Source: Candidatus Thiovulum imperiosus (lineage in GTDB: Bacteria; Campylobacterota; Campylobacteria; Campylobacterales; Thiovulaceae). From it: 64,000 nt of DNA. The position numbers were made by a program, and so were the translations under genes. Location of the stretch: assembly GCA_024281175.1 (NCBI GenBank), contig JAMJTW010000008.1, positions 159,309 to 223,308 of the forward strand, in the 5' to 3' direction. Every line of letters starts with the position of its first letter. The first letter of the stretch is position 1. The notes under the pieces were generated by a model. That model did not search any database and was not told where the DNA came from. It worked only from the letters and a program-made list of their open reading frames with translations. Shown here in pieces: positions 6,930 through 63,785 of this stretch.

Positions 6930-8672
6930 TTAATTTACTTTCCTACTAATATACAATTCAGAAAGTCTCGAAATATAGTCTAAAATTATCATAACTGCTC
7001 TACCTTTATGGTCATTAGATTTTAAATCATGATTTAATAAAACAGCAGATAGTGTCTCTAACTCATCTTCACTTGGAACTCTACCAATTACAAATAGAAA
7101 AAGGTCCTCAATTAGAGCTTCATGACTACTAAAATTTAGAGCAAAAAGAAATTCAGAACCCCAACCAGCGTCCCAATCTGAAAACATATTTGTCTTCTGG
7201 TCTAAAAACATTGTCTCCCGAATTGTTTTTGTAAGTTGGCTAAAAGAGAGTGTATCTGATGGATTTTCTACACCTCTACCAAGTTTATAGAACATTGGAG
7301 GTTGGTTGCTATTGTGAGCTTGGCTTATCCAATTTATAAATGTGCTATTTCCTGCATAAAAATTTATCTTTTTTGCAATCGGTAGATATAGCTCTTCAAA
7401 AGATTTAAATCTCTCACTATTTGCTACAAAATCATCAGAAAAGATAATATTTAAAAAGATATCTTGATAGTTAGTTGCTCCAACTTCATAAAGGTCAGCC
7501 ATAAATTCTGCCTTCTCTTCAGCACTATAATTTGGAAAGTAAAAATCCAACCAATTTAGAATAAACCAATCTGTAAGAAGTGGATTATCTGCAACTATTT
7601 CTCGATAGAAATCTTTACATCTCATAATTTCTGTACCGTTGATTTCTAAAATTTCTGTGTTGTAATCAAAAGATATTTCTAAGTTTTGGTCTCGTTCATT
7701 GTAGGAGAAATCTTTACAAGCCTGTGACGCTATTGGAACAATACTATCATCAAAAACTCCTACCATAAGTTCTAAAGACTCTCTTGTATTATCTTCTGGA
7801 CTTCTAAATCTTCTCCAATACTCTTCAGAAAGAAGATAGTTATAAACCATTGAGTCCATTGTATATCCACCATCTAACTGTTCATACAGTTCTCTTAGAA
7901 GATTTGAACCAGTAGACATATTTACAGTAGAGAGTTCAAGAGAAGCTGAATAGAATTTAGAGTTTACCAACATATATGCTGTCCAGAAATTTAGATACTC
8001 TTTGCTTGGTTCTAACGAAAAGAGTCTTGCTAAAGCTCTTTCAGGAGTTTTTCTATTCCAAGAGTAGTTATATTTCTGAGTAGCTTTTTCGGCTTGTTCA
8101 AAGTTTCCAACTTTTACTTTAAGCAATCTATTTTTGATATAAGTGATAGGTCTATCCATCTGAATAACCATCTCAAACTCATTTTTTGGTAAACCGATAA
8201 AAAACGCACTAAGAATTTTGTCCAAAACAACATACTGCTCTTCAATAGAGAGTTTTTTAAACTCCTCATCACTGTAAGCTCTTGAAAATAGAGGAAGCTC
8301 TTCTGATGGAACTCCAAGAGTAAAACCATCTCTTTCGACTTTTGTAATTTCTACATTTCGGATTTCAACTATTTTCTTCTCTAATGGAATTTCTAAAGTT
8401 GTTGGTGCTTTTGTAAGTATCCAAACACCTTCAAATCGGGAAAGGTCTAATATATCACCTCTATCTAATCTGTTGCTATGGTACTGCCACATTTCAGCAT
8501 CATATTTCCAGACAAGGTCAATCTTACTATTCTCTTTTAAAATATCAAGATTTGGAATATTTCCAACGAGATTCCAACCCTGAATTAGCTGAATAGTTTG
8601 TGTTTCATTGGAAACATTCTCTTCACTAAAAAGAGAAGAGAATGTAGCCAACATTAGAAAAATAAAACGCAT
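6930..8672 (-). CDS. Hypothetical secreted protein
   Basis: 580-aa ORF with signal-like N-terminus MRFIFLMLATFSSLFSEE. No family recognised by eye. Confidence 0.5.
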   Translation of the reverse strand: MRFIFLMLATFSSLFSEENVSNETQTIQLIQGWNLVGNIPNLDILKENSKIDLVWKYDAEMWQYHSNRLDRGDILDLSRFEGVWILTKAPTTLEIPLEKKIVEIRNVEITKVERDGFTLGVPSEELPLFSRAYSDEEFKKLSIEEQYVVLDKILSAFFIGLPKNEFEMVIQMDRPITYIKNRLLKVKVGNFEQAEKATQKYNYSWNRKTPERALARLFSLEPSKEYLNFWTAYMLVNSKFYSASLELSTVNMSTGSNLLRELYEQLDGGYTMDSMVYNYLLSEEYWRRFRSPEDNTRESLELMVGVFDDSIVPIASQACKDFSYNERDQNLEISFDYNTEILEINGTEIMRCKDFYREIVADNPLLTDWFILNWLDFYFPNYSAEEKAEFMADLYEVGATNYQDIFLNIIFSDDFVANSERFKSFEELYLPIAKKINFYAGNSTFINWISQAHNSNQPPMFYKLGRGVENPSDTLSFSQLTKTIRETMFLDQKTNMFSDWDAGWGSEFLFALNFSSHEALIEDLFLFVIGRVPSEDELETLSAVLLNHDLKSNDHKGRAVMIILDYISRLSELYISRKVN

Positions 8673-11614: not shown

Positions 11615-13384
11615 CTATTCTGGTGGTGCTTCTGGTGGAGCATCATCAGTGTCTAGCTCAATTGCTTCTTCTATTTCTACAAGATATCTTTCTGGAAAAG
11701 TTCCTGAAAGACACTGAAACTGTTCACCAATCTTCTGATATTTAACTGTAAAATCTTCAAACTCTAAATCTTCTGATATTTTTAACATTCCAAAACTAGT
11801 AGAACTTGTTGTTTCAGAAAAAGAGATAGCATCACTACTATTTGATAGATGTATAAGATTTTGCTGATTGTCTAAACTTCGATAAGTTCCTTTTCTGTAA
11901 AAGAGTGTTACATCTTCAAAACCCATTTTTGCCAGAAGATATACCGCTCCATTTTCACAAGGAGTTCGAGAGTCATCACTGCTACAAATCTCATAATCAC
12001 TACTATTTAAACCACACATTGAAGTATCAAGATATACAGTCAAGTTGTTAGAGATAGAAGTACCAACTATTCTAAAAGTGACAACTTCTACTCCACTGGA
12101 TAAGCCTTTGAATTTTGTTCTAAAGATGTATCGGTCTGTTCTATTATCACCATCTTGAGTGTGAGAAACTATTTCTAATTTATCACCTCGAATTAATACT
12201 TCAACTTTTGAGTTGTATCTTTCTGGATAGTTTAGAGTTGATACGACAAAGAACTCTTCCCCCTCAACTGTATTGAAGTTTTCACTAGTTTGAGTTTCAG
12301 TAGAGATGGAAAGAGACATATCACCACTCTGTTCTAAACTCTCATTGCTATCAAAAATGTGTGCTTCTAAAACAGAAATTTCTACTTCTAAAGGTTCTGT
12401 ATCTTTTCCAACAACTCCAATAGATATCTGCTCTGTTCCTGCAGAAATCCCTTTAATTTGAGTTGTACAAACCTCATCAACACAAGTTGGTTTTAATAGA
12501 GCTACAATACCACCAGTTTGTAGAGAGAGTGAAAATTCCGTATCATCAACAATATTTTCAACTCTAAAACTTAAATCTTTTGTCTCATCAATTTCCAATT
12601 CAAAAGGGATTTCTGAAATCAGAGATAGAACCTCATCTGGTTCGGGAGGTTCTGTAACAGTTACAGTTGTTGAAATTGTAGAGACAGCAGTTTTTATATA
12701 GATGGTTTCTGTTCCCACTCGGCTTCCTGTAACTTCAAAAGAGCAGAGTTGCTCTCCTGTATAAAGTTGAGTTGGACATATTGGCGATGAGGTTTCCAAT
12801 ATGTTTCCAGTTTGATGTTGAACAGATAATGAAGTTGAACTTGAGAAATTTGCCACTTTAAAAGAGATATAATCTGTTTCTCCAACTTCAATATTTAAAA
12901 ATTGTCCACTCTGAAAAGAGAGAACTTCATTCAATTTGGGAACTTCTACAACAACTTCTTCTTCCTCTACAACAGCTTCTAAAACAGTAATTTCAAACTC
13001 TAAAGGAGTTACACTTTTCCCCAAAACAGAAATAGATAGTGTTGTTGTTCCTGAGGATAGTGCTGTAATTTTAGTTGAACACAATCTTTTTGTTGAACTT
13101 ATAGTTTGACATGTTGGAATTGGAATTGAGACTATATTTTGAAAAGAGAGAGAGAGATTTGTATCATTGTAATTTTCAACAAAGAAAGCTAAATACCTAT
13201 TTGTATCTATCTCCATATCAAAAGAGGTCTCATAAGTTGAAGAAGTTAAAAATAGAACTTCATCTAAATTCTCTGTCTCTTCAACTGTTTCACTCTCTGA
13301 TGGCAACATTAAAAGAGGTGTCGCTTCATCTTCTGTACCGCAACTCCAAAAAAGAAGTGGTATTAAAAATACTATTTTTTTCAT
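11615..13384 (-). CDS. Lipoprotein with three Ig-like ~95-aa internal repeats
   Basis: Lipobox LLFWSC. Three paralogous modules (aa ~41-137, 152-245, 250-341), each with a conserved Cys pair and an ...E(F/V)EI(T/S)VLEA end. The start overlaps the upstream gene by 4 nt. Confidence 0.6.
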   Translation of the reverse strand: MKKIVFLIPLLFWSCGTEDEATPLLMLPSESETVEETENLDEVLFLTSSTYETSFDMEIDTNRYLAFFVENYNDTNLSLSFQNIVSIPIPTCQTISSTKRLCSTKITALSSGTTTLSISVLGKSVTPLEFEITVLEAVVEEEEVVVEVPKLNEVLSFQSGQFLNIEVGETDYISFKVANFSSSTSLSVQHQTGNILETSSPICPTQLYTGEQLCSFEVTGSRVGTETIYIKTAVSTISTTVTVTEPPEPDEVLSLISEIPFELEIDETKDLSFRVENIVDDTEFSLSLQTGGIVALLKPTCVDEVCTTQIKGISAGTEQISIGVVGKDTEPLEVEISVLEAHIFDSNESLEQSGDMSLSISTETQTSENFNTVEGEEFFVVSTLNYPERYNSKVEVLIRGDKLEIVSHTQDGDNRTDRYIFRTKFKGLSSGVEVVTFRIVGTSISNNLTVYLDTSMCGLNSSDYEICSSDDSRTPCENGAVYLLAKMGFEDVTLFYRKGTYRSLDNQQNLIHLSNSSDAISFSETTSSTSFGMLKISEDLEFEDFTVKYQKIGEQFQCLSGTFPERYLVEIEEAIELDTDDAPPEAPPE

Positions 13385-14097
13385 TCTTCTACTCTTAAAA
13401 CTCTACTTCTAAACTTTAGACTTCCCAAAATGTAGAGAAAAGTTGAAAATATTAGAAAGTGAAATAGAGCTTCTATTTTGAACTCTTCGAAAAGATAGAA
13501 ATTTGGAACAACTAGAGAGACTATCTCAAAAAGAAGTTGTAAATTTCTATCAGGTTCTAACTTGTAAGCGTAAAAATAGAGTTCATCAAGACCATTTCCA
13601 ATAAAGAAAATTATAATTGAGTAGATAGTTGCTTTAATTGTTGAACTATATTGAGCTAAAACCAAAATTAGAGTAGCTAAAAGAGAAGCCGAAAGAGACA
13701 AAAGCAGAGTGTGAGTTATAAGTTCAAAACTGAAACCTAAAAGTAGAATGGCGATGAGGTTTGGAACTATAAAAAGTAGAGTTTGGAAAAGTAGAAGTAG
13801 TGAAATAGAAATTAGAAGTGAAAGGAAGTAGAAATTCCTACTAACTCCAATAGAGAGTGGAACTATAAAAAGTCCTCCCCGCTTCTCTTTTCCAAGAAAG
13901 TGTAATGAGTAGAAAACAGCAAAAATATTTAGTAGGAAACCTTGAAGAGCCACTGTTACACTGCTAAAAAGTCTCTGCTCTTCTCCAATATCAATTCCAC
14001 TAATTGAGAGTGCTAATAGAGTTGAAATTAGAGAGAGAGAGACAAAAAGAAAAAAGAGCTTTTCTCGAAAAGCGATTTGAAGAAAAAATTTAATCAT
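13381..14097 (-). CDS. Polytopic membrane protein (ABC-2 permease-like)
   Basis: 238 aa with ~6 hydrophobic helices. ATGA overlap with the RloB-like gene stop upstream, and a 4-nt overlap with the lipoprotein gene downstream. Confidence 0.5.
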   Translation of the reverse strand: MIKFFLQIAFREKLFFLFVSLSLISTLLALSISGIDIGEEQRLFSSVTVALQGFLLNIFAVFYSLHFLGKEKRGGLFIVPLSIGVSRNFYFLSLLISISLLLLFQTLLFIVPNLIAILLLGFSFELITHTLLLSLSASLLATLILVLAQYSSTIKATIYSIIIFFIGNGLDELYFYAYKLEPDRNLQLLFEIVSLVVPNFYLFEEFKIEALFHFLIFSTFLYILGSLKFRSRVLRVEE

Positions 14098-14759
14098 TTT
14101 ATATCCACCAATTTAGAAACTAAACTTCCTATATTTGAACCCAAATTATCTAATATTTTTTCTATATCTTGATGCTCAAAAAGTTTTTCTTGCTCTACTG
14201 CTCTTTCTATATTCTCTAAAGTAACCATCTCTTTTGGAAACTTATTTCTCTTTTTTATATAAGTTTTCTTAGGCAGTTTTTTTGCTAACTCTTCAGTTAT
14301 GAAATCTCTTCCATTCTTTTCATTTAAAAACAGTTTTGTACTATCGTATTTTTTTATATCTTGGAAGTGGAGCAATAGCCAAAATTCAAAAATAGGATTT
14401 GTTAAAGCGATGTGATACGCAGGTTTCTCTTTTACTTTCTGAAAAATATTTAAAATCTTATCTCTCTGCTTTTCACTTTTTTCTCTATCTAAAACCAGCC
14501 AACAGCTATCAAAAACATCTCTAAAATCATATTTTTCTTGGAGATGTTTTTCCAAATCATTAAAAACACACTCTGGAGAACTACAATTGCTATTTTTTTG
14601 AATTACATCTATCTCAACTAATTTTGAAGAAAATCTATCTTTTATCAAATTGAAATATTCAGGTTCTGTATTTCTTCCTTCAGTAGATATTACTAAAAAT
14701 GGTTTAGCTAATTCACTCTCTTCAGGGATTTCTTCTTGATTTCTATTTTTAAAGCCCAT
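14094..14759 (-). CDS. RloB-like protein (partner of AAA_21 ATPase; AbiLii-like)
   Basis: N-terminal FLVISTEGRNTEPEYF matches the RloB hallmark (C/S)EGxxTEpxYF; 221 aa; overlaps the ATPase gene by 11 nt. Confidence 0.7.
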   Translation of the reverse strand: MGFKNRNQEEIPEESELAKPFLVISTEGRNTEPEYFNLIKDRFSSKLVEIDVIQKNSNCSSPECVFNDLEKHLQEKYDFRDVFDSCWLVLDREKSEKQRDKILNIFQKVKEKPAYHIALTNPIFEFWLLLHFQDIKKYDSTKLFLNEKNGRDFITEELAKKLPKKTYIKKRNKFPKEMVTLENIERAVEQEKLFEHQDIEKILDNLGSNIGSLVSKLVDIK

Positions 14760-16032
14760 CTAAATTCCTGAAATATGGAACAGCTCCAAATCTACCTAAA
14801 AGGTACGCCTTTTCTAATTTAGAATCAAATCTACTTTCGAACTTTCTAAAAGGTACTATTTTTGATGCACCACTATCATCTTTTTCAATCAAATTTATCT
14901 CATCTCTTCTAACTAAATCTAAATTTAAGAGAGTAGATTCATGAGCTGAAACAATTAGTTGAGATTTGGAATCTTCCGATAATTTGTAGAATATTTCAAA
15001 AAATTTTCTTGTCAAGTTTGGATGTAAACTTCTGTCAAACTCATCAATAATAATTGTGAAATTCTCTTCAAATACAGGAATAAGAGGAATAAAATCAAAA
15101 AGCCTTTTTGTTCCATCAGATTCATCTTGGAGTTCAAAGTTATCTATATTTCTACCACGATGTTGTAACACAAGTTTTTCAACTAAAATATCTTTATCAT
15201 CTCTAATAAAACTATACAGAGTCTCATTGTGTCTTAAAAAAGAGACAAAGTTCTCTTTTTCTATATCAAGTCTTATCTCTTTTGGAAGTTTCTGAATTAC
15301 CTCTTCATAATCTTCAGACACATTTGCAATATCAACTATTCCAGTATCAAATTTCTGTAAATACTTTTTAAAAAGGTCTTTAAGTGTTTTGTCTCTTGCA
15401 ATAATTGGAATTAAATCAAACTTTGTATCTGGGTATAAAACAGCTAATTTTGTATCGAACCAGTTCCAAATCTGGTTAACAATCTTTAGATTCTCCAACT
15501 CTTTTTTTGCCACATCAGATAGAAATAGGGTTCTATTCTGTCTTGCTATATCTTCAGCATAAATTTGCAATCTATCCAATACTGTATCTTCAAAAATAGT
15601 TTTCGAGACACATGTTTTCTTATACTTTCTTTCAAAATACATTTCTGGTTCATCTGTATCAATTCGATATAGCCACTCTTCGAGAACAGTTTTATTTCTT
15701 AATTCAAGAGAAATACCGTAAGAGAAAAGTTTATTATTTAAAAAAATTTCAAACTCAAAATTTGTTGGCTTATTTAAATATTCATAATCCAATCTAAAAT
15801 ATTTTTTGTATGTTTCAACGCTATCAAAACCATCTACAATAATTGCTTTAGCAAAACTAATCGCTTTTATAATATTTGACTTTCCAGAAGCATTTGCACC
15901 ATATAAAATTGAACTTTTTAAGATATTGTGAGCTGTATGACTTTCAAGCTCTTTTCTTTTTCCAGCAGTTAAATCCAAAATTGTCTCATCTTTATAAGAC
16001 AAAAAATTTGAAACTATAAATTTTTTTAACAT
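14749..16032 (-). CDS. AAA_21/ABC-type ATPase (RloA/AbiLi-like)
   Basis: Walker A GANASGKSN, Walker B IIIDEFDRSLHP, H-loop-like VSAHES; 427 aa. The N-terminal SNFLSYKDETILDL is typical of SMC/ABC-like defence ATPases. Confidence 0.8.
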   Translation of the reverse strand: MLKKFIVSNFLSYKDETILDLTAGKRKELESHTAHNILKSSILYGANASGKSNIIKAISFAKAIIVDGFDSVETYKKYFRLDYEYLNKPTNFEFEIFLNNKLFSYGISLELRNKTVLEEWLYRIDTDEPEMYFERKYKKTCVSKTIFEDTVLDRLQIYAEDIARQNRTLFLSDVAKKELENLKIVNQIWNWFDTKLAVLYPDTKFDLIPIIARDKTLKDLFKKYLQKFDTGIVDIANVSEDYEEVIQKLPKEIRLDIEKENFVSFLRHNETLYSFIRDDKDILVEKLVLQHRGRNIDNFELQDESDGTKRLFDFIPLIPVFEENFTIIIDEFDRSLHPNLTRKFFEIFYKLSEDSKSQLIVSAHESTLLNLDLVRRDEINLIEKDDSGASKIVPFRKFESRFDSKLEKAYLLGRFGAVPYFRNLDGL

Positions 16033-16152
16033 CTTGAATTATATCGAAGAGAATAGTATTTGTATTGCCCTGCTTCTTTAGAGTTTTTCCTTTGGAAAGA
16101 GTCTCCAGTCAAATTTAGCATTTTGATACACTTTGATAAAAAAGGTTGCAAA

Positions 16153-16974
16153 ATGGTAACAGTTGGAATTATTGGATTGGGGCTTATGGGAGGCTCTTTA
16201 GGTTTAGCTTTAAAAGGTAAGTATAGAGTTGTTGGATACGATAGAAATGAGAAGCATGTAGTGGAAGCCTTAGAAATTGGTATTGTTGATGAGGTGGTCT
16301 CTTTCGAAGAAGTTCAAAAAGTAGACATTCTCTTTTTAGCAATTCCAGTAGAGGGTATTATCTCTGCAATAGAGAGTTTCTCAAATTTAGGAAAAGAGAC
16401 AACTATTATCGATTTAGGTAGTACAAAAGAGAAGATTGTAGAGAAAGTTCCAGCAGAGATAAGAGAGAACTTTATTCCTGCTCACCCTATGGCTGGAACT
16501 GAAAAGAGTGGACCAACTGCAAGTATAAAAGAGCTTTATAGAGATAGGGTTGTTGTTTTATGTGATTTAGAGAAATCAGGAGAAAAGCAGAAGAAAGATG
16601 CTTTTGAGATATTTAACTTTTTGGAAATGAGAATAGTTGAGATGAATTCTAAAGAGCATGATAAACATACAGCTTGGATAAGTCACCTTCCCCACCTCAT
16701 CAGCTTCTCTTTGGCGAATAGTGTTATGGCACAAGAGAATAGAGAGAGTATTTTAAATCTTTCAGCTGGAGGATTTCGAGATATGAGTCGTCTTGCTAAA
16801 AGTTCTCCAAATATGTGGAGAGATATCTTCTATCAAAATCGAGAAAACCTTTTAGAGTCAGTAGAGCTGTTTCAGAAAGAGCTAAATCATATGAAAATTC
16901 TTCTACAAAATTTAGAGATGGATAGAGTTAAAGAGAGAATGGTTAGTGCTAATAGACTCCATGACATTCTTTAA
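16153..16974 (+). CDS. tyrA: Prephenate dehydrogenase
   Basis: MVTVGIIGLGLMGGSLGLALK Rossmann start; HPMAGTE and SHLPH motifs. The ORF-track start at 16060 adds 31 non-homologous residues, so ATG 16153 is preferred. Confidence 0.85.
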   Translation: MVTVGIIGLGLMGGSLGLALKGKYRVVGYDRNEKHVVEALEIGIVDEVVSFEEVQKVDILFLAIPVEGIISAIESFSNLGKETTIIDLGSTKEKIVEKVPAEIRENFIPAHPMAGTEKSGPTASIKELYRDRVVVLCDLEKSGEKQKKDAFEIFNFLEMRIVEMNSKEHDKHTAWISHLPHLISFSLANSVMAQENRESILNLSAGGFRDMSRLAKSSPNMWRDIFYQNRENLLESVELFQKELNHMKILLQNLEMDRVKERMVSANRLHDIL

Positions 16975-17004
16975 ATCTAGTAAAATTTCAAAAAAAGGTA
17001 ATAT

Positions 17005-17802
17005 ATGAAATATGTGCTGGTTTTAACTACACTCTTTACAACTCTATTTGGAGATATTTTAAATGGTGTAGCTATTAGAGTTAATGATGGGGTCATCACT
17101 CTTTACGATTTAGAAACTGCTCAAAAAGAGTTTCAGAAATCAAAGAGTGAAGTTAAAGAGATTTTAATTCACAAACTATTAGAAGATAGTGAAATTAAAA
17201 AATATAAACTTGAAGTTTCAAATAGTGAATTTGAAACTTTTATAAATAGAGTTCTTCAACAGAGAGGTATTCCCTCAAAAGAGCTTCTTTTTAGAACTTT
17301 TCCAAAAGAGAAATTGAGAAGAGAAGCAACAATTCCAAAACTTTACCAACTTCTCTCTTCACAAAGTATGGAAAATCCAACTGAAGAAGATTTAAAAGAG
17401 TTCTTTGAAAAGAATTTAGAAAGATATCAAGCCTCAAGCGAATTTGATATAACAATATACTCTTCCAGAAGTCCAGTAGAACTTCAAAAAAAGATTTACA
17501 ACCCACTTTTAAATAGTAAATTTGTTCGAGTTGAGAAACAGAAAGTTCAAAGAGATAAATTACCACCCCAACTATCTCAAGTGTTACAAGATTTAAAAGA
17601 GAGAGAGTTTTCACCAATTTTTCAGATGGGAACTCTTTCTGTATCTATATTTCTAAATGAGAAGAGTGGTGGAAAAGATATCTCGTTTGAAACTGTAAAA
17701 GATAGAGTTCGAGGTGAGTACTATTTTGAGCAACAGCAGAAAATAGTTCAGAAACATTTTCAGAAACTTCGAGAGGAGGCGATAATTGAGTACATTCGCT
17801 AA
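17005..17802 (+). CDS. Periplasmic SurA-N-like chaperone
   Basis: Signal peptide and an N-terminal AIRVNDGVITLYDLE segment typical of the SurA N-terminal domain. Size is similar to Campylobacter SurA-like chaperones. Confidence 0.6.
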   Translation: MKYVLVLTTLFTTLFGDILNGVAIRVNDGVITLYDLETAQKEFQKSKSEVKEILIHKLLEDSEIKKYKLEVSNSEFETFINRVLQQRGIPSKELLFRTFPKEKLRREATIPKLYQLLSSQSMENPTEEDLKEFFEKNLERYQASSEFDITIYSSRSPVELQKKIYNPLLNSKFVRVEKQKVQRDKLPPQLSQVLQDLKEREFSPIFQMGTLSVSIFLNEKSGGKDISFETVKDRVRGEYYFEQQQKIVQKHFQKLREEAIIEYIR

Positions 17803-18943
17803 ATTACTATTTCCAATTTTACTAATTGGTTGTGGCAGTGAAGTCACTTTAGAAGGTGAAGAGAGTGATGTTATTGTACAGAGAAATTTATACACTCTCT
17901 TTTCTGATAGATATAACACCTATCTGATAGATGAAGAGAAAGAGTTAGAAAGGAGTTGGGAAAGTAGTAACCCTATCTGGAAAGCGAAACTTGTTGATAA
18001 GGATATATTTCTCTACTACAACAACTACTCATTTTCACTTCTGTTACGAGGTGTCACCGCTTCTGAAAATCCATTTTATGACACTTTGGAACTTGTTGAT
18101 TGGGAGGGAAAAACTATCTGGAGTTATAGTGGAATAGGTGATGAGGTTCTCTATGGAGATTTCATTCCTCTTCGAAATGGAAATATTCTAATTCAAGTTT
18201 TTGAAAGAGTTTCAGATTTTGATTTAAGAAATCTTGGAATGGAAGAGAGAAGATTTGAACTTAATGGAGAAATCCTCTTTCCAAAGATAGTTGAGATTAG
18301 ACCAAATATTATTGAGGGTTCAACAAAAATTATGTGGGAGTGGAAACTTTCTGAACATATGGTTCAAAATGAGTTTCCAAGTTTAGGAAACTACTCTGAA
18401 GATATAGCTCTTGAAGAGGATAAGTTTGATATAAACTTTGATATAAATTACTCTTCAGATGGTTGGGGTGGAATTGAAGATATTAGTTATAACTCTGATA
18501 GAAATCATATCGCTTTTACAATGAGTGGATTTAAAGAGATAATTATTTTAGACAAAAGTAGTGAAGAGATACTTTTGAGACAAGACTTACAAGTTCCACC
18601 AATATATATCAAGTGGATAGAAAACTCGCTTTCTCTCTTAAGTAGAGTTGATGAGGTTAGTTTAAGATTTGATATCTTAACTCCAAAATATTCAGAAGGC
18701 AAATATCTGCTAAATTGGAATTTGTATGATATTGAAATAGAAGAGACAGTTATAATTGAAGATGTTCCTCAAGAAGCCACTATCTATTTTGATGTTTTAG
18801 AAAGTGGTGATTTTCTAATTACAGATAGCTGGAAAAGAGATATATATAAAATATCTAATGGAAAACGAGTTTGGGAATATCTCCACAATAGTTCTATTTC
18901 CGAAGCATCTCTATACTGGAATAGTTATATCGGAATAAAATAA
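17786..18943 (+). CDS. Hypothetical lipoprotein (beta-propeller-like, weak arylsulfotransferase-family resemblance)
   Basis: TTG start; lipobox LLIGCGS. The WEWKLSEH segment resembles ASST-family propellers, but the functional call is weak. Confidence 0.5.
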   Translation: MSTFAKLLFPILLIGCGSEVTLEGEESDVIVQRNLYTLFSDRYNTYLIDEEKELERSWESSNPIWKAKLVDKDIFLYYNNYSFSLLLRGVTASENPFYDTLELVDWEGKTIWSYSGIGDEVLYGDFIPLRNGNILIQVFERVSDFDLRNLGMEERRFELNGEILFPKIVEIRPNIIEGSTKIMWEWKLSEHMVQNEFPSLGNYSEDIALEEDKFDINFDINYSSDGWGGIEDISYNSDRNHIAFTMSGFKEIIILDKSSEEILLRQDLQVPPIYIKWIENSLSLLSRVDEVSLRFDILTPKYSEGKYLLNWNLYDIEIEETVIIEDVPQEATIYFDVLESGDFLITDSWKRDIYKISNGKRVWEYLHNSSISEASLYWNSYIGIK

Positions 18944-19042
18944 ACCTTTCATCTTAAGATTTCTCGGGACTTACTAAAATCTTCTACTTAGCTAGTCCCT
19001 CAAATTTGATAAAATTAAGAAAAGTAGATTTAAGGAATAGAA

Positions 19043-19966
19043 ATGAAAAAGTATAGATTAGTAACAAGAAGTGATATGGACGGTCTTGTTTCTGCAGTGA
19101 TTTTAAAAGAGCTGGGAATAATAAATAGTATTAAATTTGTTCACCCAAAAGATATGCAAGATGGACGAATAAAGATAGGAGAGAGTGATATAACAACAAA
19201 TTTACCTTATAACTCAAACGCATATTTGGTGTTTGACCATCATGAAAGCGAAACTATCAGAAATAAAGGTCGAAAAGATAATCATATTATAGATGCATCT
19301 GCACCATCTGCGGCAAGAGTGGTTTATGACTATTATGGAGGAAAAGAGGCACTGCCTAATATTACAGATGATATGATGAATGCTGTTGATAAAGCAGACT
19401 CTGCTCAATTCAATATCGATGATATTTTAAATCCAAAAGGGTGGGAACTGCTCTCTTTTCTAATGGACTCAAGAACAGGATTGGGAAGATTTCGAGAATT
19501 TAGAGTTTCGAATTATGAACTGATGATGAATTTGATTGACTATTGTAGAAATCACTCCATAGAAGAAATTCTTTCTCTACCAGATGTAAAAGAGAGAGTT
19601 GATTTATATAAAAGATATGAGGATAAATTTAAAGAGCAGATAAAGAGATGTTCTCGAGTTTATGGAGAACTTGTTATTTTAGATTTAAGAAAAGAGGAGA
19701 TTATATATCCAGGGAATAGATTTATGATTTATGCTCTTTTCCCAAAAGTCAATATTTCAATTCATCACATTTGGGGTTTTAAAAAACAGAACCAAGTTTT
19801 CGCTGTTGGAAAATCTATTTTGAATAAGAGTTCTAAAATAAATATTGGAGAGCTGATGTTGAAGTATGAGGGTGGTGGTCACCGAAACGCTGGAACTTGT
19901 CAAATTGCCAATGAACAAGCCGAATATGTTCTTGAAGAGCTAGTTTCTGAAATTACAAAAAAGTAA
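19043..19966 (+). CDS. DHH-family phosphoesterase-like protein
   Basis: N-terminal TRSDMDGLVSA (DxD motif) and FDHHESE (DHH motif); 307 aa. Confidence 0.6.
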   Translation: MKKYRLVTRSDMDGLVSAVILKELGIINSIKFVHPKDMQDGRIKIGESDITTNLPYNSNAYLVFDHHESETIRNKGRKDNHIIDASAPSAARVVYDYYGGKEALPNITDDMMNAVDKADSAQFNIDDILNPKGWELLSFLMDSRTGLGRFREFRVSNYELMMNLIDYCRNHSIEEILSLPDVKERVDLYKRYEDKFKEQIKRCSRVYGELVILDLRKEEIIYPGNRFMIYALFPKVNISIHHIWGFKKQNQVFAVGKSILNKSSKINIGELMLKYEGGGHRNAGTCQIANEQAEYVLEELVSEITKK

Positions 19967-45759: not shown

Positions 45760-46788
45760 TTAGTATAGAAACATAACTCTAGCTCCAGCAGAGTAGAATT
45801 TATCGATATAGTGATTTGGATAGACGGCACTATAATTTGTTAGAAGTTTCACATTTTTACTGATATGCCAATTCAGAGCTAAATCCCACTTTTCCTGATA
45901 CTCTTCGACAACATCTCTTAAATCCAGTCTGGAGTATCTTAAAGCTATTTCGAGGTCATCGCTATTTTTAGCATTGCTAAATTTTGCTTCACCCAATTTG
46001 AATTTCTTTTTTCCACCAAAGAGAAAGTAGCCAACTTGGGCGTAGTATCCAAAAAGTTTATACTTATCAAGATGACTTTCCAGATACTCTGCTTGAAAGT
46101 GAAAAGAATCTTTTAGGTAGAGAGTTTCAAATCCAAAATCTTCTGTATTTTCCACATTTTTGAAATTTACATTTAGAAGTTTCTCTTCTATTTCCTCAAT
46201 TCGAGATTTATGTTTATATCTTCTATTGTCATCATAAAAATCTGTATACATGTAGGAAGTTCCAATATGAACTTTCTCCCCTTTTCCAAGTTTGTATCCA
46301 TAAGTTGCTTTTACAACGCCTCTAGTTCTCTTATCATCATCATCTCTCTCTTCATCAATAGAGTTTTTAAAAACTCCGAAAAAGATATTTGTTCGATGTT
46401 TATCAACTTTTGCTGAAAGGGAAACTTCCGAACCAAGTTTTCTATTTTCTGTAAGAGTATCTACAAGAGAACTCTCCATAAAAGGAGAGTATTTGGAACT
46501 TGAGTAGGTTTCCATAGAGAAAGGAATTTTCATATTTCCAACTTTCACTCTAAATCCATTGAAGCCATATCCAAGATAGACATCTTTAAAACTTACCTCA
46601 TCAGCAAAATCCAATTCAGCTTCATAGAAGAAATCTTGTAGAGAACCTTTATGAAAAACTCTAGCTCTTCTAATTTCGCTGTTGCTTTCCTCATCTGTAT
46701 AGGTAAAATCAGCATCTAATCTAGCTCCAAATTTGAAATCTTCTCCAAATAGAAAAGAGCTAAAAAGTATGAAAACTATATATCTCAT
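45760..46788 (-). CDS. Outer-membrane beta-barrel porin (OprO/P-like)
   Basis: Signal peptide, alternating amphipathic strands, C-terminal aromatic ...ARVMFLY. The family assignment is tentative. Confidence 0.5.
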   Translation of the reverse strand: MRYIVFILFSSFLFGEDFKFGARLDADFTYTDEESNSEIRRARVFHKGSLQDFFYEAELDFADEVSFKDVYLGYGFNGFRVKVGNMKIPFSMETYSSSKYSPFMESSLVDTLTENRKLGSEVSLSAKVDKHRTNIFFGVFKNSIDEERDDDDKRTRGVVKATYGYKLGKGEKVHIGTSYMYTDFYDDNRRYKHKSRIEEIEEKLLNVNFKNVENTEDFGFETLYLKDSFHFQAEYLESHLDKYKLFGYYAQVGYFLFGGKKKFKLGEAKFSNAKNSDDLEIALRYSRLDLRDVVEEYQEKWDLALNWHISKNVKLLTNYSAVYPNHYIDKFYSAGARVMFLY

Positions 46789-48167
46789 AAATCTTCCTTA
46801 TCTAATACTATGTAGTCTGCTGGATTGTTTGGCTTTTTCCCATTATCCTCAACAAGAAGAAGTTTGGTTTTATTTCCTTTAAGTATCGCTACTCCCTCTG
46901 TAAAACCTATTTTTGGTTGGTTCTTTACAAATTCAGCTTTCCCATTATTATCTAAAAACCAGAGTTCAAAATCTTTCTTTCCTCTATCTCCAGAAGCACC
47001 AGCAACAACCCAATATCCATTTCTCTCATTATCATAAGTGAAATCTCGAATTCCAAGACCGTTCAAATTGAGAAAGATAGGTTCTCCAAACTCGAGTTTT
47101 TCCAAATCTTTTATTTCAAGTATCACCGCATTTTCTGAATGGAGTGGAGTTCTAAATCCTATATGTAGATTTTTGTTAAATGCCAATCCCTCGATATTTA
47201 TCTCATTTCCAAAAAGGTTTGGAAACTTTTCATAAAGTGCCTCTTTAAGTCCAGAGTAGGCGATGAGGTTCTCTGCTTTTCCATCGATATAGTCAAATTG
47301 CAATATCTGATTTCTTCGCTCTTTATCCAAATCTTTTCGAGTATTGCTGTGAGATGTAATTGCATAAACTCTATTTCCATCTATCGTAACAGCTTCTAAA
47401 TCATCAACCTCTTTCTTTAAAACTCTTTTAAACTCTTTTGACATAGGAAGTTTCCCATCTTCTACAATTTCACCATCTTTTGAAATGCTCAAAAGTGAAA
47501 AGCTCTTTTTTGCCTCATCTTCAACGACAAGGATTTTTCCGTCTGGAAGTTGAACTGCTCCAGATGGCTCAAATATATTTTCAAACTCATCTTTCTGATA
47601 GGGAACTGTTCCCGTTGAAATTGTGTTGAATGGGGTCTGGTCTATGAAAATAAGACCATATACTGCTAATAGCACACTTATCACTAATCCAATTGAAAAG
47701 TATGTGTAGGCTTGTCGTAGCCAAAAATATTTCTTTTTGATTTCCGCTCCTAAAATGTGAAGGTGTAGAGTTAAATTTTTTGCTGAACTATCAAAAGAGG
47801 AGATAGTTTCAGCAGTCTCCAACATAAAATCGGCAGGATGCATTTTTGCCATATCATCATAATAGAGTAGAGACTCATAATTCTCTATTTTCTCTTCCTT
47901 TTTCAAAAGTCTCTCTTTTGTTCTTGGTCGAATAGCAAAAGCTGCGAGAATGATTGAGATAAGAGCAGTTAAGATGATTGAAGCGAAAGCAAAATTCATA
48001 ATATTGTTATGAACAACAAAGCCAGAAGCCGTCATAATGACGGTAAGAATAAATCCATTGACTGAAATCAATATTCCAGCTTTTGTGTCTGCTAGTGTTG
48101 TTAAGTCAAGATTTGATTTCAGACCATTTCTGAAATATGTTCCAACTAGCTTTGTATCTTTTTTCAT
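46785..48167 (-). CDS. Membrane protein: N-terminal DUF5706/Pycsar-effector-like TM module fused to DUF3616-like beta-propeller
   Basis: N-terminal LDLTTLADTKAGILISVNGF followed by 3 TM helices. The C-terminal half has VQLPDGKILVVEDE, IEGLAF, GYWVVAGASGD, reminiscent of DUF3616. Domain calls are from memory. Confidence 0.5.
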   Translation of the reverse strand: MKKDTKLVGTYFRNGLKSNLDLTTLADTKAGILISVNGFILTVIMTASGFVVHNNIMNFAFASIILTALISIILAAFAIRPRTKERLLKKEEKIENYESLLYYDDMAKMHPADFMLETAETISSFDSSAKNLTLHLHILGAEIKKKYFWLRQAYTYFSIGLVISVLLAVYGLIFIDQTPFNTISTGTVPYQKDEFENIFEPSGAVQLPDGKILVVEDEAKKSFSLLSISKDGEIVEDGKLPMSKEFKRVLKKEVDDLEAVTIDGNRVYAITSHSNTRKDLDKERRNQILQFDYIDGKAENLIAYSGLKEALYEKFPNLFGNEINIEGLAFNKNLHIGFRTPLHSENAVILEIKDLEKLEFGEPIFLNLNGLGIRDFTYDNERNGYWVVAGASGDRGKKDFELWFLDNNGKAEFVKNQPKIGFTEGVAILKGNKTKLLLVEDNGKKPNNPADYIVLDKEDL

Positions 48168-50019: not shown

Positions 50020-50610
50020 CTAGGTCACTTCCCAATTTAGAAGATATTTTGTCATGCTTTGAAAGTCTGGAAATTCATACTTCATAGAAAATGAAAGAGC
50101 ATTTGCGATTTTCTTTCTCTCTTCAGTTAGAGATTTACTATCTAATTTGAAGATTTGGATTGTAAACTCAGCTTTTTCAAAATCTTGTAAGTTCAAATCT
50201 TCTCTAATTAGAATATCTCCAGCCCAACTATACTCAAAGAAGTTTTCAGGGTTTTCAAGAACTGGATTTACGATTTTTACATAGTCTTCTCTTTTCAATC
50301 CAAAATTATCTTTTGTATGGGAGCAGTGAAATTTGCTATTACAAGAGACGAGTAAATTGTTGTAATTTAAAGTTTCTTCAGGAAAACGGTCTCTTGTTTT
50401 AAAGTGGTCTATATTCGAGTTTTCTGGTAAATCATCTATCTCTTTTTCGCAATAAGCACATAGAAGACTCTGCTCTTCAAGTAAAATATCGGCTCTAAGT
50501 TTAGCTCTTATCTCTCCAATCTCTTCCCAAGCCTTGCTCTCTTTTGGCTTTTTGACTTTAGCTTTTGTTTTTTGGAAATAAGAGGGTTCTTCTTTTTCAA
50601 TTTTAAACAC
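50020..50610 (-). CDS. HNH endonuclease, PtuB-like (TIGR02646-type)
   Basis: CAYCEKEI...NIDHFKTRDRFPEETLNYNNLLVSCNSKFHCSHTKDN matches the CxxC...H-F-x-P...N-L-L-x-x-C HNH pattern of Septu/retron-associated PtuB. 8-nt overlap with the upstream ATPase. Confidence 0.75.
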   Translation of the reverse strand: MFKIEKEEPSYFQKTKAKVKKPKESKAWEEIGEIRAKLRADILLEEQSLLCAYCEKEIDDLPENSNIDHFKTRDRFPEETLNYNNLLVSCNSKFHCSHTKDNFGLKREDYVKIVNPVLENPENFFEYSWAGDILIREDLNLQDFEKAEFTIQIFKLDSKSLTEERKKIANALSFSMKYEFPDFQSMTKYLLNWEVT

Positions 50611-51991
50611 CTCTTTTTCTCCGCATATCCATCTCCATTTTTAAAAGTTTTAAATCTAAATCTGTTTTTCCAAGAGAATTTTCTAGCTGTTCCCAAAAAA
50701 CTTGAAACTTTTTATCTTTAAATCTATTTGAGTAGATAAGTTCTTTAATCTCTTTTATCTCTTGTTCAATTTCTGGAGTTCTGGTTTCATCTAATCCCAT
50801 TACATCAGTCAAAACTTTTTGAAACTCTAAACCGTAACTCTTTTCAGCTGTTAAAACTCCAGTTGGCGTAAGAACTCTTATTGTTTCACTTTTTGCACTT
50901 CCAATAATATGAGGTGAATGAGTGGCTACAACTATTTGGCAATTGTTATTTTTAGCAAAATTTTCATAAAGTTTCAAAACACGATTTTGCCAACTTGGGT
51001 GAAGAGATAATTCTGGCTCATCAATTAAGATTATTTTATTTTTTATGTCTCTAAAATAGAGATACAAAACTTTGCTAACAAGAGTCTTTTCACCAGTTGA
51101 AAGCTGATTTATATTGAACTCTTTTTCACTACTATTTTTAAAATAGATGTTGTCCTCTAAATCAACTCTGCTGAAATTGAAAGTTAAATCCAATCCAGAA
51201 AAAACCTCTGAAATATATTTTTGAAGTTTCTCTGTAATTTGGTCAATATTGAGTTTCTCAATTCTGAACATTCGATTGATATAGTCTAAAATTAACTTTT
51301 CCAAATCACCAAAAACATTTACTTCAACTGGTAAATACTCTATTCGTTTCAGATATTCAGACTTCTTTTCTCTAATTCCATCAAAACTTTCGCGAAGTTC
51401 AAATATATCCAATTCACCATTTTCATCTGTTTTGAAAATTTCAACAGAGTCTCCATCTTTTAAACTATATTTTGAAAGATATTCCAAAATAGTTGTTTTT
51501 CCAGTTCCATTTTTTCCAGCAATTACAATTAGAGATAGAGGCTTTTTATCACTATCTTCAAAACTTAACTCAAAATCTTGAAACATTTTGCTGTCTTTGA
51601 TGAAGATGTTTTTGATTTTATACTCATTTGGCTTTAAGTCTTGGAACTGGCTTTGTTGGAGTTGCTTAACGCAATTATCGATATATTGGAAAAGTTCAGT
51701 TTTTGGATTTACAGATTTACTAAGTTTTACAGAAGAGAGTTTGAAATTTGGTTTAGGGCAGTTTTGATTTAAAATATTTGTTTTTCTAAAAAATTTAAAA
51801 TCTAAGTTTTTAACTTCACCAGTTACTTGGACTAAAGCAATAGGAAAAATGCCATTTTTAATAAGAACAATATCACCAATATTCATACTTTTAAATTGTT
51901 GAATTTGTGAGCTTTTCATAAAACTTTTTCTAATAGAAATATGATTTCCATTGTCACCAAAATCATAATCTATCATATGCCAATAGGTCAT
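50603..51991 (-). CDS. ABC/AAA_21-type ATPase, PtuA-like, with extra N-terminal domain
   Basis: Walker A IAGKNGTGKTT, signature-like LSTGEK, Walker B IILIDEPELSLHP, H-loop VATHSP. The ~150-aa N-terminal extension has a PUA/EVE-like pattern YW...MNIGDIVLIKNG..PIALVQVTGEV. Confidence 0.75.
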   Translation of the reverse strand: MTYWHMIDYDFGDNGNHISIRKSFMKSSQIQQFKSMNIGDIVLIKNGIFPIALVQVTGEVKNLDFKFFRKTNILNQNCPKPNFKLSSVKLSKSVNPKTELFQYIDNCVKQLQQSQFQDLKPNEYKIKNIFIKDSKMFQDFELSFEDSDKKPLSLIVIAGKNGTGKTTILEYLSKYSLKDGDSVEIFKTDENGELDIFELRESFDGIREKKSEYLKRIEYLPVEVNVFGDLEKLILDYINRMFRIEKLNIDQITEKLQKYISEVFSGLDLTFNFSRVDLEDNIYFKNSSEKEFNINQLSTGEKTLVSKVLYLYFRDIKNKIILIDEPELSLHPSWQNRVLKLYENFAKNNNCQIVVATHSPHIIGSAKSETIRVLTPTGVLTAEKSYGLEFQKVLTDVMGLDETRTPEIEQEIKEIKELIYSNRFKDKKFQVFWEQLENSLGKTDLDLKLLKMEMDMRRKRGV

Positions 51992-61235: not shown

Positions 61236-63785
61236 TTAATAACCAAATTCTCCCCAAAACTTAACACTATTTCCGCCAAAAGAGTTATCTATAAACTCTA
61301 CACTTATTGGTAGCGGAACTCGATGAAGAAATAGAGGTTCAAATTTTACACCGACTATCTTTTCATCTATATAATTCATCTCTCTGTTTTCGTGAAGTAG
61401 ATAGTTATATTGAAGATAGATAGACTCTCTTCGTAGAGAAATTGGAAATTTGAAAAAGTATGTTGAGAAGTTAAAGTTCTGTTCCAATCTACTAGAAATC
61501 TTTTGTAGAGATTTTGCATATGGTGGAAAAACATCTGAAAGACCATTCATAGCTATATCTCCAATATCATCTACATCTAAAGGAGACTCAACTTCTAAAA
61601 TTGCTTCATCTTTTAAATTCTTTATTCCAGAGTAGGATAGAGAAAAATATGTCTCATCAAAAATATCTTTTGAAATTCCAATCTTTCCACCAACATTTTC
61701 ACTACCATCTATCTCTTTCCAGAAAGGTGTGATGTGAAAGTTGTAATCTGAAGAGATAGCATTTCCAAAATGTTCATTCCTTGAAAATGAAATTCCTGAA
61801 GAGAGCTCTAATCTCTCATCTTTATCAGCTTGAAAAAGAAAATTTAAACTCTCTCTACCCTCTTTGTAAAATGGAAAGTAGATGCTTCCAAAAAGTTCAC
61901 TTCTCTTCTCTTCACTCCAGTAAAGATAGGATAGTGTAAACTTCACTATATATCTAAAATTTGAGTAGGAGATAGAACCACCTTTCCCATCATTGAGAGT
62001 ATCCAAATAGGATAGGGAAAGTGTGTTGTACCCTATTGGGTCAGAAAAGAGAAAAGAGTAATATTTCTCATCTCCAAAAAGGAAAGAGAAATTTGCATAC
62101 TCCATATCTGTATACTCTCTCCAAGTTGAAATCTCTTCTCTATCTAAAGTCTCACTATCTCCTCTAAAATCATTTCCAACGCTCCAGAAAACTGGATTTT
62201 CTCTACGAAATTTCTCTATCTCAAAAATTTTGTAAGAGTATCCATCTTCTTCCAAAGTTGTCAAAACCATTTTTGTTCCAGAAATTACTTTTCCATCTAC
62301 GATATTATCGCCATCTCCAACTCGAAAAAATTTTCCCTCTTTCCAGAAATAGAGTCCAGAACCGTGTAGTGAATTTGCAATAAAGAGAATACCACCATTG
62401 AATGTGTCAAGAACTCTGGAGTAGAAACCTTTAAAAGAGAATAGCTCCTTACCATCTTTCATTAAAACTCTACTCTCTCCAATCTGTTTAAAATAGAGAA
62501 CTTCACCATATTTGCCAAAAATAGGATAGGAGTTTCCAACTCCAATAAACCGTTTTCCACTCCAGATATGCGGTTCTATAAAAGAGCTATTGATGTCGAA
62601 GTAGAGCCACTCATTCTGAAATTTGTCAAGATAGATTTTTGAGTCAGAAAGAAGAACCTCATCATCTCTCCAGAGACCATATCCAACTTTTTCAACTCCA
62701 ATATCTCCACTTCTTGCATGTAGCAGAGTTCCATTATCTTCAAAAACTCTACTTCCAAAACTCTTTCCAATCTCTTTCAAATTTCCATATTTTGAGAGAA
62801 AGTATAGTCTCGGTTTCTCAATTCTGTCTGATGAGGTTAGATAAACTCCACCTTCTCCTTTTGAAATTGGGTAGCAAGTTAGAGACTTTAAAACCTCAAA
62901 ACCACTCTGTAATTTGAAATCTCTTTTCGCTACTTCTCCAACTTTCAAAAACTCTTCAAATAGTTCATCAAAACTCTCTCCAAAATGATTTTCAAAAGAG
63001 GAGTTCAGAAATAGTGGTGTGAAAATTACGCTATTTTCAGAGTGGTTGTAAAAAAAGCTATTCACTTTATCTATTCCAAATTTCTGATAAAGATAGAAGT
63101 TGAAAAAACCTCCCACGATATATTTCTCTTCCATAAAAGGGAAATCCAAATGGTTGTTTATAAATCTCTCTTTTGTAAGTTTCGAAATTGAGTTTAGAAA
63201 TAGTGCTTTTGCTCGACCACTAAAAAGTCTACCTCCATTTCCAAATAGAGACTCGTTTAAAACCGAATTTCCCTCTAGTAAAGCGTCTGGAAGTAGCAAG
63301 TTTGGAAAAATGTGAATTAGAGAAAATGTTGGTGCTGAACCAAAAATGTCATTTGCCATTTGAGATAAAACATCTTTCTGACTATTCAGCTGAAAAGAGT
63401 GTGCTAACTCATGATACAAAAGTGTATCTATCCAACTTTTCGACGCGAAATAGTCCACCATTCCAGAACCACCATTAAATAGAACAACTCTGTTTCCAAA
63501 AACATTTGCTGTATATCCATTGTTTATCTCATCTTTTGAAGAAGCTAAAAAAATTGTAAGTCGATTTCGAAGTTTATACCCAAATGACTTCTCGTAAATT
63601 TTTAAAATCCTATCCACCTTTGAAACAACTTCATCTCTATATGGTGCATACTCTTCTGGATAGACAAAATCAAACTTCTCTAACTCTTCCGTTACATAGT
63701 TTGAATTAAAAGGCAACATATCTCCACCAAATAGTAGAACTCCTAAAAATATGTGTAGTAAAACTTTTTTCACAATATTCCCCAA
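61236..63785 (-). CDS. Large secreted/outer-membrane-associated protein with HExxH motif
   Basis: 849 aa; signal-like N-terminus (an internal GTG giving MKKVLLHIFLGVLLFG is a possible true start); HELAH zinc-metalloprotease-like motif; C-terminal half rich in beta-strands ending ...WGEFGY. Confidence 0.5.
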   Translation of the reverse strand: MGNIVKKVLLHIFLGVLLFGGDMLPFNSNYVTEELEKFDFVYPEEYAPYRDEVVSKVDRILKIYEKSFGYKLRNRLTIFLASSKDEINNGYTANVFGNRVVLFNGGSGMVDYFASKSWIDTLLYHELAHSFQLNSQKDVLSQMANDIFGSAPTFSLIHIFPNLLLPDALLEGNSVLNESLFGNGGRLFSGRAKALFLNSISKLTKERFINNHLDFPFMEEKYIVGGFFNFYLYQKFGIDKVNSFFYNHSENSVIFTPLFLNSSFENHFGESFDELFEEFLKVGEVAKRDFKLQSGFEVLKSLTCYPISKGEGGVYLTSSDRIEKPRLYFLSKYGNLKEIGKSFGSRVFEDNGTLLHARSGDIGVEKVGYGLWRDDEVLLSDSKIYLDKFQNEWLYFDINSSFIEPHIWSGKRFIGVGNSYPIFGKYGEVLYFKQIGESRVLMKDGKELFSFKGFYSRVLDTFNGGILFIANSLHGSGLYFWKEGKFFRVGDGDNIVDGKVISGTKMVLTTLEEDGYSYKIFEIEKFRRENPVFWSVGNDFRGDSETLDREEISTWREYTDMEYANFSFLFGDEKYYSFLFSDPIGYNTLSLSYLDTLNDGKGGSISYSNFRYIVKFTLSYLYWSEEKRSELFGSIYFPFYKEGRESLNFLFQADKDERLELSSGISFSRNEHFGNAISSDYNFHITPFWKEIDGSENVGGKIGISKDIFDETYFSLSYSGIKNLKDEAILEVESPLDVDDIGDIAMNGLSDVFPPYAKSLQKISSRLEQNFNFSTYFFKFPISLRRESIYLQYNYLLHENREMNYIDEKIVGVKFEPLFLHRVPLPISVEFIDNSFGGNSVKFWGEFGY

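Follow-up and report, generated by a model that had tools for sequence, protein, structure and literature searches.

An AbiL-type ATPase–RloB gene pair divergent from tyrA in Candidatus Thiovulum imperiosus

The stretch of DNA analysed here, 64,000 nucleotides (nt) of contig JAMJTW010000008.1 of Candidatus Thiovulum imperiosus (hereafter, the window), carries on its minus strand, at positions 14094..16032, a gene for an ABC ATPase directly followed by a gene of the RloB family. An earlier note, made from the letters of this stretch, had described the two as an AbiL- or PARIS-like pair sitting as a stand-alone insertion next to tyrA. Taken together, the data presented below indicate that the pair is an ordinary copy of the known two-gene AbiL-type anti-phage module, apparently intact.

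The gene pair and its two proteins

The two genes, with products of 427 and 221 amino acids (aa) and an 11-nt overlap as the earlier note had given them, were confirmed from the list of open reading frames (ORFs) and from the sequence, and both reading frames are intact. Their positions, and that of the junction, are the following:

14749..16032, minus strand: ATPase gene, 427 aa, AbiLi-type ABC ATPase (SMC/Rad50/OLD-like); ORF list and sequence
14094..14759, minus strand: RloB gene, 221 aa, AbiLii / RloB family, presumed nuclease effector; ORF list and sequence
14749..14759, minus strand: overlap of ATPase stop and RloB start, 11 nt, ATGGGCTTTAA; read from the sequence

Judging from the letters, this overlap would couple the translation of both proteins, and comparably tight ATPase–RloB junctions are found at the homologous loci described below. 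The impression that the pair is more AT-rich than its flanks also holds: its GC contents of 0.278 and 0.282, compared to a window mean of 0.336 (sd 0.024; 45 ORFs of at least 200 aa), are the two lowest among these 45 ORFs. The GC content at third codon positions (GC3) is 0.198 and 0.187, inside the normal range of the window (0.224, sd 0.027). Therefore, we ascribe the dip in GC to a protein composition rich in Lys, Asn, Ile, Phe and Glu, and not to foreign codon usage.

Profile searches with the ATPase returned the Pfam families AAA_21 (3.3e-33) and AAA_15 (1.3e-11), both exceeding their gathering scores, and no match to the Pfam family ABC_tran. In PADLOC-DB the top model is AbiLi (3e-78), while the AriA, PtuA, HEC-01A, PDC-M07A and MADS3 models match far more weakly, the AriA models reaching 1.4e-31 and 2.1e-15. 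NCBIfam gave no specific model for either protein of the pair, and PHROGs place both in families of unknown function. Residue conservation was assessed on 25 homologues, phage- and plasmid-borne copies among them, and on a second alignment (A3). The following motifs were located:

15877..15900, minus strand: Walker A / P-loop, G45-ANASGK51-S52, conserved in the homologues
15109..15123, minus strand: ABC signature-like motif, E304-S-D-G-T308, from the alignment of homologues
15019..15054, minus strand: Walker B and D-loop, I327-IIDEFDRSLHP338 (D330, catalytic E331, H337), from the alignments
14941..14943, minus strand: H-loop, H364 (SAHES), invariant in both alignments

Specifically, G45, A46, N47, A48, G50 and K51 of the Walker A motif are invariant in the 25 homologues, with S49 and S52 conserved in at least 90%, and all eight residues are invariant in A3. 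In the signature-like motif, which maps to the C-lobe in the region aligning with the Old protein of phage P2, E304, S305, G307 and T308 are invariant and D306 nearly so. D330, E331, L336 and H337 of the Walker B/D-loop segment (D-loop, S335-L-H337) are likewise invariant, and the stretch IIDEFDRSLHP aligns with FIDEPELYLHP of P2 Old. All three motifs quoted in the earlier note are present: GANASGKSN corresponds to residues 45-53, IIDEFDRSLHP to 328-338 and SAHES to 362-366.

The AlphaFold2 (AF2) model of the ATPase has a predicted local distance difference test score (pLDDT) of 85.7 and a predicted template modelling score (pTM) of 0.85. Its best solved structures are Septu PtuA (8SUX, 8EE4, 8EEA), the OLD protein of Thermus scotoductus (Ts OLD, 6P74), Rad50 and SMC heads, with E-values from 1e-10 to 1e-9. 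By sequence, Ts OLD 6P74 is the sole PDB match (E 0.001), and hhalign relates the C-lobe to P2 Old with an E-value of 5.5e-5. The region between the two lobes (residues ~140-300) is predicted to consist of helices followed by a beta-rich module (232-299), with no long coiled coil. With its 427 aa, the protein is about 18 aa below the length of its homologues (~445 aa), and a 7-residue segment near position 35 is missing. In conclusion, the protein falls into the SMC/Rad50/OLD/PtuA class of ABC ATPases and retains all of its catalytic motifs; by these motifs (K51, D330/E331, the signature and the H-loop are all present) it should be catalytically competent.

The 221-aa partner matches the Pfam RloB family over model positions 2-195 of 195 (2.4e-30, 106.6 bits, cut-off 31.5), and its top PADLOC model is AbiLii (6e-16). 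The AAA_21 and RloB assignments of the earlier note, for which it had proposed a check by hidden Markov models, were thereby upheld, as was the AbiL-type layout. Conservation was followed in 53 homologues and then in a wider alignment of 70 (A4), with the following elements standing out:

14679..14681, minus strand: E27 of the EG..TE motif, candidate Toprim glutamate, at the C-terminal end of strand 1
14481..14489, minus strand: D91-R92-E93, candidate DxD-type metal site, at the end of strand 3
14367..14399, minus strand: RloB signature N121-P-x-F-E-F-W-L-L-x-H131, after strand 4

The segment that had been singled out as the RloB hallmark, STEGRNTEPEYF, is found at residues 25-36, and E27, G28, T31 and E32 are invariant or nearly invariant in both sets of homologues. 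At the candidate metal site D91 is invariant and R92 nearly invariant, with D or E at the third position throughout the displayed part of the alignment. In the signature, N121, P122, F126, W127, L128, L129 and H131 are invariant and F124 and E125 nearly so; in A4, H131 stays invariant and the other signature residues are nearly invariant. Y35-F36 and D84 are likewise invariant or nearly invariant family-wide. The AF2 model of this protein (pLDDT 90, pTM 0.86) shows a core arranged as b1(21-26)-a-b2(49-52)-a-b3(85-91)-a-b4(115-121), followed by a helical C-terminal half. In the model, E27 (after strand 1) and D91-x-E93 (end of strand 3) would occupy the Toprim metal-binding positions; the Toprim glutamate and DxD motifs were reportedly defined by Aravind et al. 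in 1998.

Homologous loci and related systems

The distribution of homologues is patchy. Outside the species, the nearest homologues of the ATPase are about 52% identical and belong to Sulfuricurvum, Sulfurospirillum, Candidatus Parabeggiatoa, Mariprofundaceae, Cognaticolwellia and other Gammaproteobacteria, while the RloB family as a whole comprises 9,195 clusters at 50% identity (E <=1e-3). We inspected eight independent homologous loci, five chromosomal, two from phages and one from a plasmid:

L005: Sulfurospirillum diekertiae chromosome
L006: Sulfuricurvum metagenome-assembled genome, with a classical toxin–antitoxin (TA) module alongside
L023: Cognaticolwellia beringensis chromosome, adjoining integrases, HipA and Mob_Pre
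L024: metagenomic contig, TA-rich
L025: second metagenomic contig, with housekeeping neighbours
L014: Lactococcus prophage proPhi7, both genes annotated 'abortive phage resistance protein'
L016, 3001..4987: P2-like Klebsiella phage ST13-OXA48phi12.1, the pair lying with the replication genes on one side and the portal gene on the other
L015: mobilizable Fusobacterium varium plasmid

In 8/8 loci the RloB gene lies directly 3' of the ATPase gene, and the identities of the two proteins (ATPase/RloB) to those of the window drop in parallel, from 52/49% down to 28/27%. No hsd genes were found in any of the eight, the five chromosomal ones being covered to 7-8 kb, and no relatives of the membrane-protein and lipoprotein genes that follow the pair in the window occur at any of them; in addition, the surroundings of the eight loci are mutually unrelated. 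Because the unit recurs in eight unrelated contexts without hsd genes, we conclude that the pair is a self-contained mobile two-gene module. The stand-alone part of the earlier claim therefore stands. An ancestral transport operon, which the earlier note had named as the finding that would speak against it, does not fit a pair that recurs in these contexts without the downstream genes.

Phage P2 has its defence genes old and tin in the stretch that follows replication gene A. From the general P2 gene order, we take the position of the pair in the Klebsiella phage to match that of old and tin, and the arrangement looks like a swap of one ABC-ATPase/nuclease defence cargo for another.

Among the known systems, the closest is AbiL. 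The features that define it operationally, namely an AbiLi-type ATPase, an AbiLii/RloB gene immediately 3' on the same strand and intact ATPase motifs, are all found in the window. AbiL of Lactococcus lactis, for which PADLOC and DefenseFinder have models, has the same layout, with an AAA_21/AAA_15 ABC ATPase followed by an overlapping or adjacent RloB-family gene, and the Lactococcus prophage pair aligns over 98% of the window ATPase, although the window proteins are just 26-30% identical to that pair. Another difference is that the pair described here is chromosomal, lies amid the housekeeping genes of an AT-rich host and abuts two envelope genes. AbiL has been placed among the systems that pair an ABC ATPase with a TOPRIM protein (PMC11464382). 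HHpred analyses relate RloB to OLD_TOPRIM, with AbiLii described as the toxic effector (PMC10440598), and a further study superposes AbiLii onto 6NJV, an OLD nuclease, and has AbiL act after phage transcription (PMC13064643).

RloA/RloB of Campylobacter jejuni share with the pair the Pfam RloB family (full model), the ATPase–RloB layout and, probably, the phylum. They reside inside type I restriction-modification (R-M) loci, whereas the pair is neither embedded in nor adjacent to hsd genes, and with none of these within 10 kb or among the scanned large ORFs of the window, an R-M-embedded RloAB was discarded. PARIS (AriA/AriB) likewise combines an ABC ATPase with a separate small nuclease-type partner, and the presumed logic, in which a sensor ATPase restrains a toxic effector, is common to both. 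The likeness to PARIS put forward in the earlier note holds for this architecture and fails for the identity of the components: AriB is a DUF4435 Toprim protein, whereas the partner here is RloB with no DUF4435 match in Pfam; the insertion of the window ATPase (~232-299) is predicted to be beta-strand-rich, in place of a long coiled coil; and the ATPase scores best on AbiLi rather than AriA. Membership of PARIS was rejected on the effector and on the model scores.

The ATPase fold and motifs also match those of the OLD family (P2 Old, Ts OLD, Gabija GajA) and of Septu PtuA. In Old and GajA, however, ATPase and Toprim share one chain, while in the window they would be encoded by two ORFs in different reading frames, so that a single-chain OLD nuclease is out. 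The Septu partner is an HNH nuclease (PtuB); the partner here, RloB, has no PtuB/HNH match, which excludes Septu at 14094..16032. An ABC transporter operon was also rejected, given the lack of an ABC_tran match and the absence of the downstream membrane protein from the eight homologous loci.

In conclusion, we assign a probability of about 85% to the reading that the pair is a self-contained AbiL-family (RloA/RloB-type) defence module, horizontally acquired in the past. Horizontal acquisition is well supported by the distribution of the family, and in this genome the event is old or ameliorated.

A number of points weigh against this reading. We infer the defence function by analogy, the nearest homologue outside the species being only about 52% identical. 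By the account of the PARIS authors, AbiL and RloAB differ in structure from PARIS (bioRxiv 10.1101/2024.01.02.573835), so that the analogy with that system may break down in its details. The close packing of the pair with two envelope genes, detailed below, is unusual for a defence cassette. As to the structure prediction that the earlier note had proposed for the RloB protein, it yielded a confident model and no significant match to a Toprim-type fold: Foldseek against the PDB retrieved generic Rossmann-like folds only (best E 0.011), and PARIS AriB (8UX9_A) compared to the model gave an E-value of 0.14 and a TM of 0.25. The RloB profile found nothing relevant among PDB sequences, and hhalign of RloB against P2 Old was non-significant, with probabilities below 1%.

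The best local hhalign alignment places RloB 23-43 (VISTEGRNTEPEYF...) on Old 394-413 (VLLVEG-KTETN...), the segment of Old that contains the Toprim glutamate motif (VEGKTE), at an E-value of 0.074 that falls short of significance. No Toprim-clan match came out of lenient Pfam scans of 53 RloB family members, and a tblastn search of plasmids with the Toprim region of P2 Old, carried out for an OLD profile, was likewise empty. Against BFVD, Foldseek returned one significant match for the RloB model, a phage RloB-like protein (6e-6). A Toprim fold of RloB is supported by the published analyses, with no significant demonstration in the present tests.

An addiction-type TA system, in which RloB plays the toxin and the ATPase the antitoxin, would account for the pair through selfish persistence or DNA stabilisation with no real anti-phage role, and we consider this unlikely. 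It draws on the NetFlax network, in which AAA-type ATPases and TOPRIM_OLD or RloB appear as antitoxin/toxin nodes, some of them validated as toxic/neutralising pairs (PMC10440598), on the homologous pairs that adjoin classical TA modules in L006, L023 and L024, and on the fixation of the pair in 24/24 contigs of the population (see below). However, TA behaviour and abortive infection are compatible, PARIS being both (bioRxiv 10.1101/2024.01.02.573835); the founding member of the AbiL family confers phage resistance (Deng 1999, cited in PMC13064643); and pairs of this type sit at phage and prophage accessory positions typical for defence cargo.

Flanking genes and the question of insertion

The pair is divergent from tyrA, as the earlier note had it, and overlaps the first of two envelope genes on its downstream side:

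16060/16150..16974, divergent from the pair: tyrA, PDH_N 4e-39, PDH_C 6e-30, 304-aa product
16033..16149, divergent, shared: intergenic region between the pair and tyrA, holding a TATAAT hexamer
13381..14097, minus strand: membrane-protein gene, 238 aa, multi-pass, its start overlapping the RloB stop by 4 nt (ATGA)
11615..13384, minus strand: predicted lipoprotein gene, 589 aa, with internal repeats, overlapping the membrane-protein gene by 4 nt

For tyrA, the most likely start is M31 at 16150. The ATPase ATG at 16032 is preceded, at a distance of 5 nt, by a perfect TATAAT (16038..16043, minus strand), with nothing resembling a Shine-Dalgarno sequence apparent in the gap; because of this short distance and of this absence, the sequence suggests a leaderless or near-leaderless transcript of the defence pair. 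Transcription probably starts in this tyrA-divergent intergenic region and reads through into the two unrelated envelope genes, the membrane-protein gene being probably co-transcribed with the pair, and a search of the minus strand from 16032 to 11615 returned no intrinsic terminator. Both envelope genes now seem to owe their transcription to the cassette, or at least to be transcribed after it.

The membrane protein has no match in Pfam, PADLOC or PHROG, and only one relative was found among 5.8 billion proteins (51% identical); the alignment to this single relative backs its N-terminus. The gene of the relative (L013) adjoins those of a large PAS sensor kinase and a fused ABC exporter, with no AbiL pair nearby. 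For the 589-aa lipoprotein there was no family match in any library searched. Neither protein is a conserved partner of the pair; both appear lineage-specific, and their genes have window-normal GC, unlike the pair.

Within about 10 kb of the pair the neighbours are metabolic and envelope genes, and the other large ORFs scanned in the window are housekeeping or other defence genes. In agreement with the earlier note, no hsd genes were found within ~10 kb on either side, nor among those ORFs. No integrase or transposase genes flank the pair, and there are no meaningful flanking direct or inverted repeats.

A comparison of the tyrA locus between strains, which the earlier note had also proposed, was made on 24 contigs of the population, defined by an exact look-up of the identical membrane protein. 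In 24/24 of them tyrA, the ATPase, RloB, the membrane protein and the lipoprotein are found in the same arrangement, and no locus lacking the pair emerged. Strain L002, 99.6% identical to the window, shows zero differences in 12656..19480, so that this comparison carries no specific information on how selection acts on the pair. A metagenome-contig scan with the membrane protein returned no matches, source contigs included. When 185,579 species-representative genomes were scanned with tyrA, only Bacillota and Bacteroidota were retrieved, at 33-39% identity, with no relative of the host and none above 39%; the host lineage seems very poorly sampled.

Comparison of two strains (L002/L003) showed 41 substitutions over 11 kb, none of which falls in the 6.8-kb stretch 12656..19480, covering the membrane-protein gene, the defence pair, tyrA, the gene of a peptidyl-prolyl isomerase (PPIase)-like protein and the next gene. 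The differences concentrate in the radical-SAM, porin, ferredoxin, lipoprotein and 307-aa genes. The substitution-free stretch is a possible recent recombination tract or sweep.

With a normal GC3, no flanking repeats, no empty site and a pair packed against its neighbour with a 4-nt overlap, the support for an insertion at the tyrA locus, the second part of the earlier claim, is circumstantial.

The same packing could be read as a single unit of the four minus-strand genes in 11615..16032, either an envelope-linked AbiL variant or a transport-type operon using an ABC ATPase. The successive overlaps of 11, 4 and 4 nt, the lack of a terminator-like site on the minus strand, the identical arrangement in all contigs of the population and the fused ABC exporter gene beside the only relative of the membrane protein would agree with such a unit. 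Nevertheless, neither downstream protein is found near the pair at the eight other loci, and the single relative of the membrane protein has no AbiL pair nearby. Moreover, the ATPase fits the defence-type AAA_21/AbiLi models and not ABC_tran, the RloB gene intervenes between the ATPase and membrane-protein genes, and the downstream genes share the GC of the window while the pair does not. We therefore regard a four-gene unit as very improbable, and the chance is equally slim that the pair is wired, together with the membrane protein and the repeat lipoprotein, into an operon representing an envelope-coupled AbiL variant. If this were true, the variant would be one not previously described, and the ATPase–nuclease module would receive input from, or act on, what happens at the envelope, for example phage adsorption or DNA injection.

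Less probable still is a remnant, decaying or domesticated, with no activity at present: the ATPase is short by about 18 aa and lacks the segment near position 35, yet both frames are intact, catalytic motifs and family-invariant residues are all kept, and the AF2 models of both proteins are confident. Least probable of all is that the pair serves a type I R-M system as an accessory of the RloA/RloB kind, working with hsd genes elsewhere and firing, for example, when restriction is inhibited, a reading in keeping with the fact that the RloB family was first described within the hsd loci of C. jejuni (Miller 2005, cited in PMC10440598 and PMC13064643) and with the Campylobacterota-like features of the window (a Campylo_MOMP-like porin, a Cj1289-like PPIase and nearest homologues in Sulfuricurvum and Sulfurospirillum), and contradicted by the absence of hsd genes both from the 64-kb window as scanned and from the five chromosomal homologous loci.

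Other features of the window and presumed mode of action

A second pair of ABC ATPase and nuclease genes, a Septu system, was found at 50020..51991 (minus strand), its genes overlapping by 8 nt, together with a gene carrying a PycTM-like domain:

50603..51991, minus strand: PtuA, 462 aa, PADLOC PDLC00289 1.3e-78, Pfam AAA_21 2.4e-26
50020..50610, minus strand: PtuB, 196 aa, PtuB/HNH models 7.1e-44
46785..48167, minus strand: PycTM-like protein, 460 aa, Pfam PF18967 2.1e-15, PADLOC PycTM 6e-19

The Septu pair adjoins a class I aminoacyl-tRNA synthetase gene, and the GC of PtuA (0.287) is the third-lowest in the window. In the 460-aa protein, whose gene is flanked by those of a phosphate-selective porin and of a Cthe_2159-family protein, an N-terminal PycTM-like two-transmembrane effector domain is fused to DUF3616/DUF6929-like regions; by its domain alone, this protein may not necessarily belong to a Pycsar system. 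Three large ORFs have no Pfam match: 61236..63785 (849 aa), 6930..8672 (580 aa) and 19043..19966 (307 aa). A Campylo_MOMP/OprD-like porin, the Cj1289-like PPIase and a GC content of 33.6% would point to the Campylobacterota as the phylum of the host, and no rRNA gene was found in the 64 kb of the window.

By analogy with PARIS, OLD, Gabija, Septu and lactococcal AbiL, the AbiL-type pair could work as follows. An oligomer of the ATPase would keep the RloB nuclease inactive and sense infection; a phage-derived trigger would alter the ATP-dependent conformation of the ATPase; the RloB nuclease, then released or activated, would cut RNA/tRNA or DNA; and phage development would halt at the expense of host growth, that is, by abortive infection. 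Translational coupling of the two genes would fix the ATPase:RloB stoichiometry, as is to be expected if the effector is toxic by itself.

The pair is one more divergent member, at about 52% identity to its nearest relatives, of a very large family recognised by current tools; PADLOC-type tools would call it automatically, and it holds no surprise for the specialist. Together with the Septu system 35 kb away, it depicts small ATPase–nuclease modules scattered among core genes and not gathered in one island. Diverse intact orthologues such as this one are useful for comparative and structural work on the trigger, target and assembly of AbiL/RloAB.

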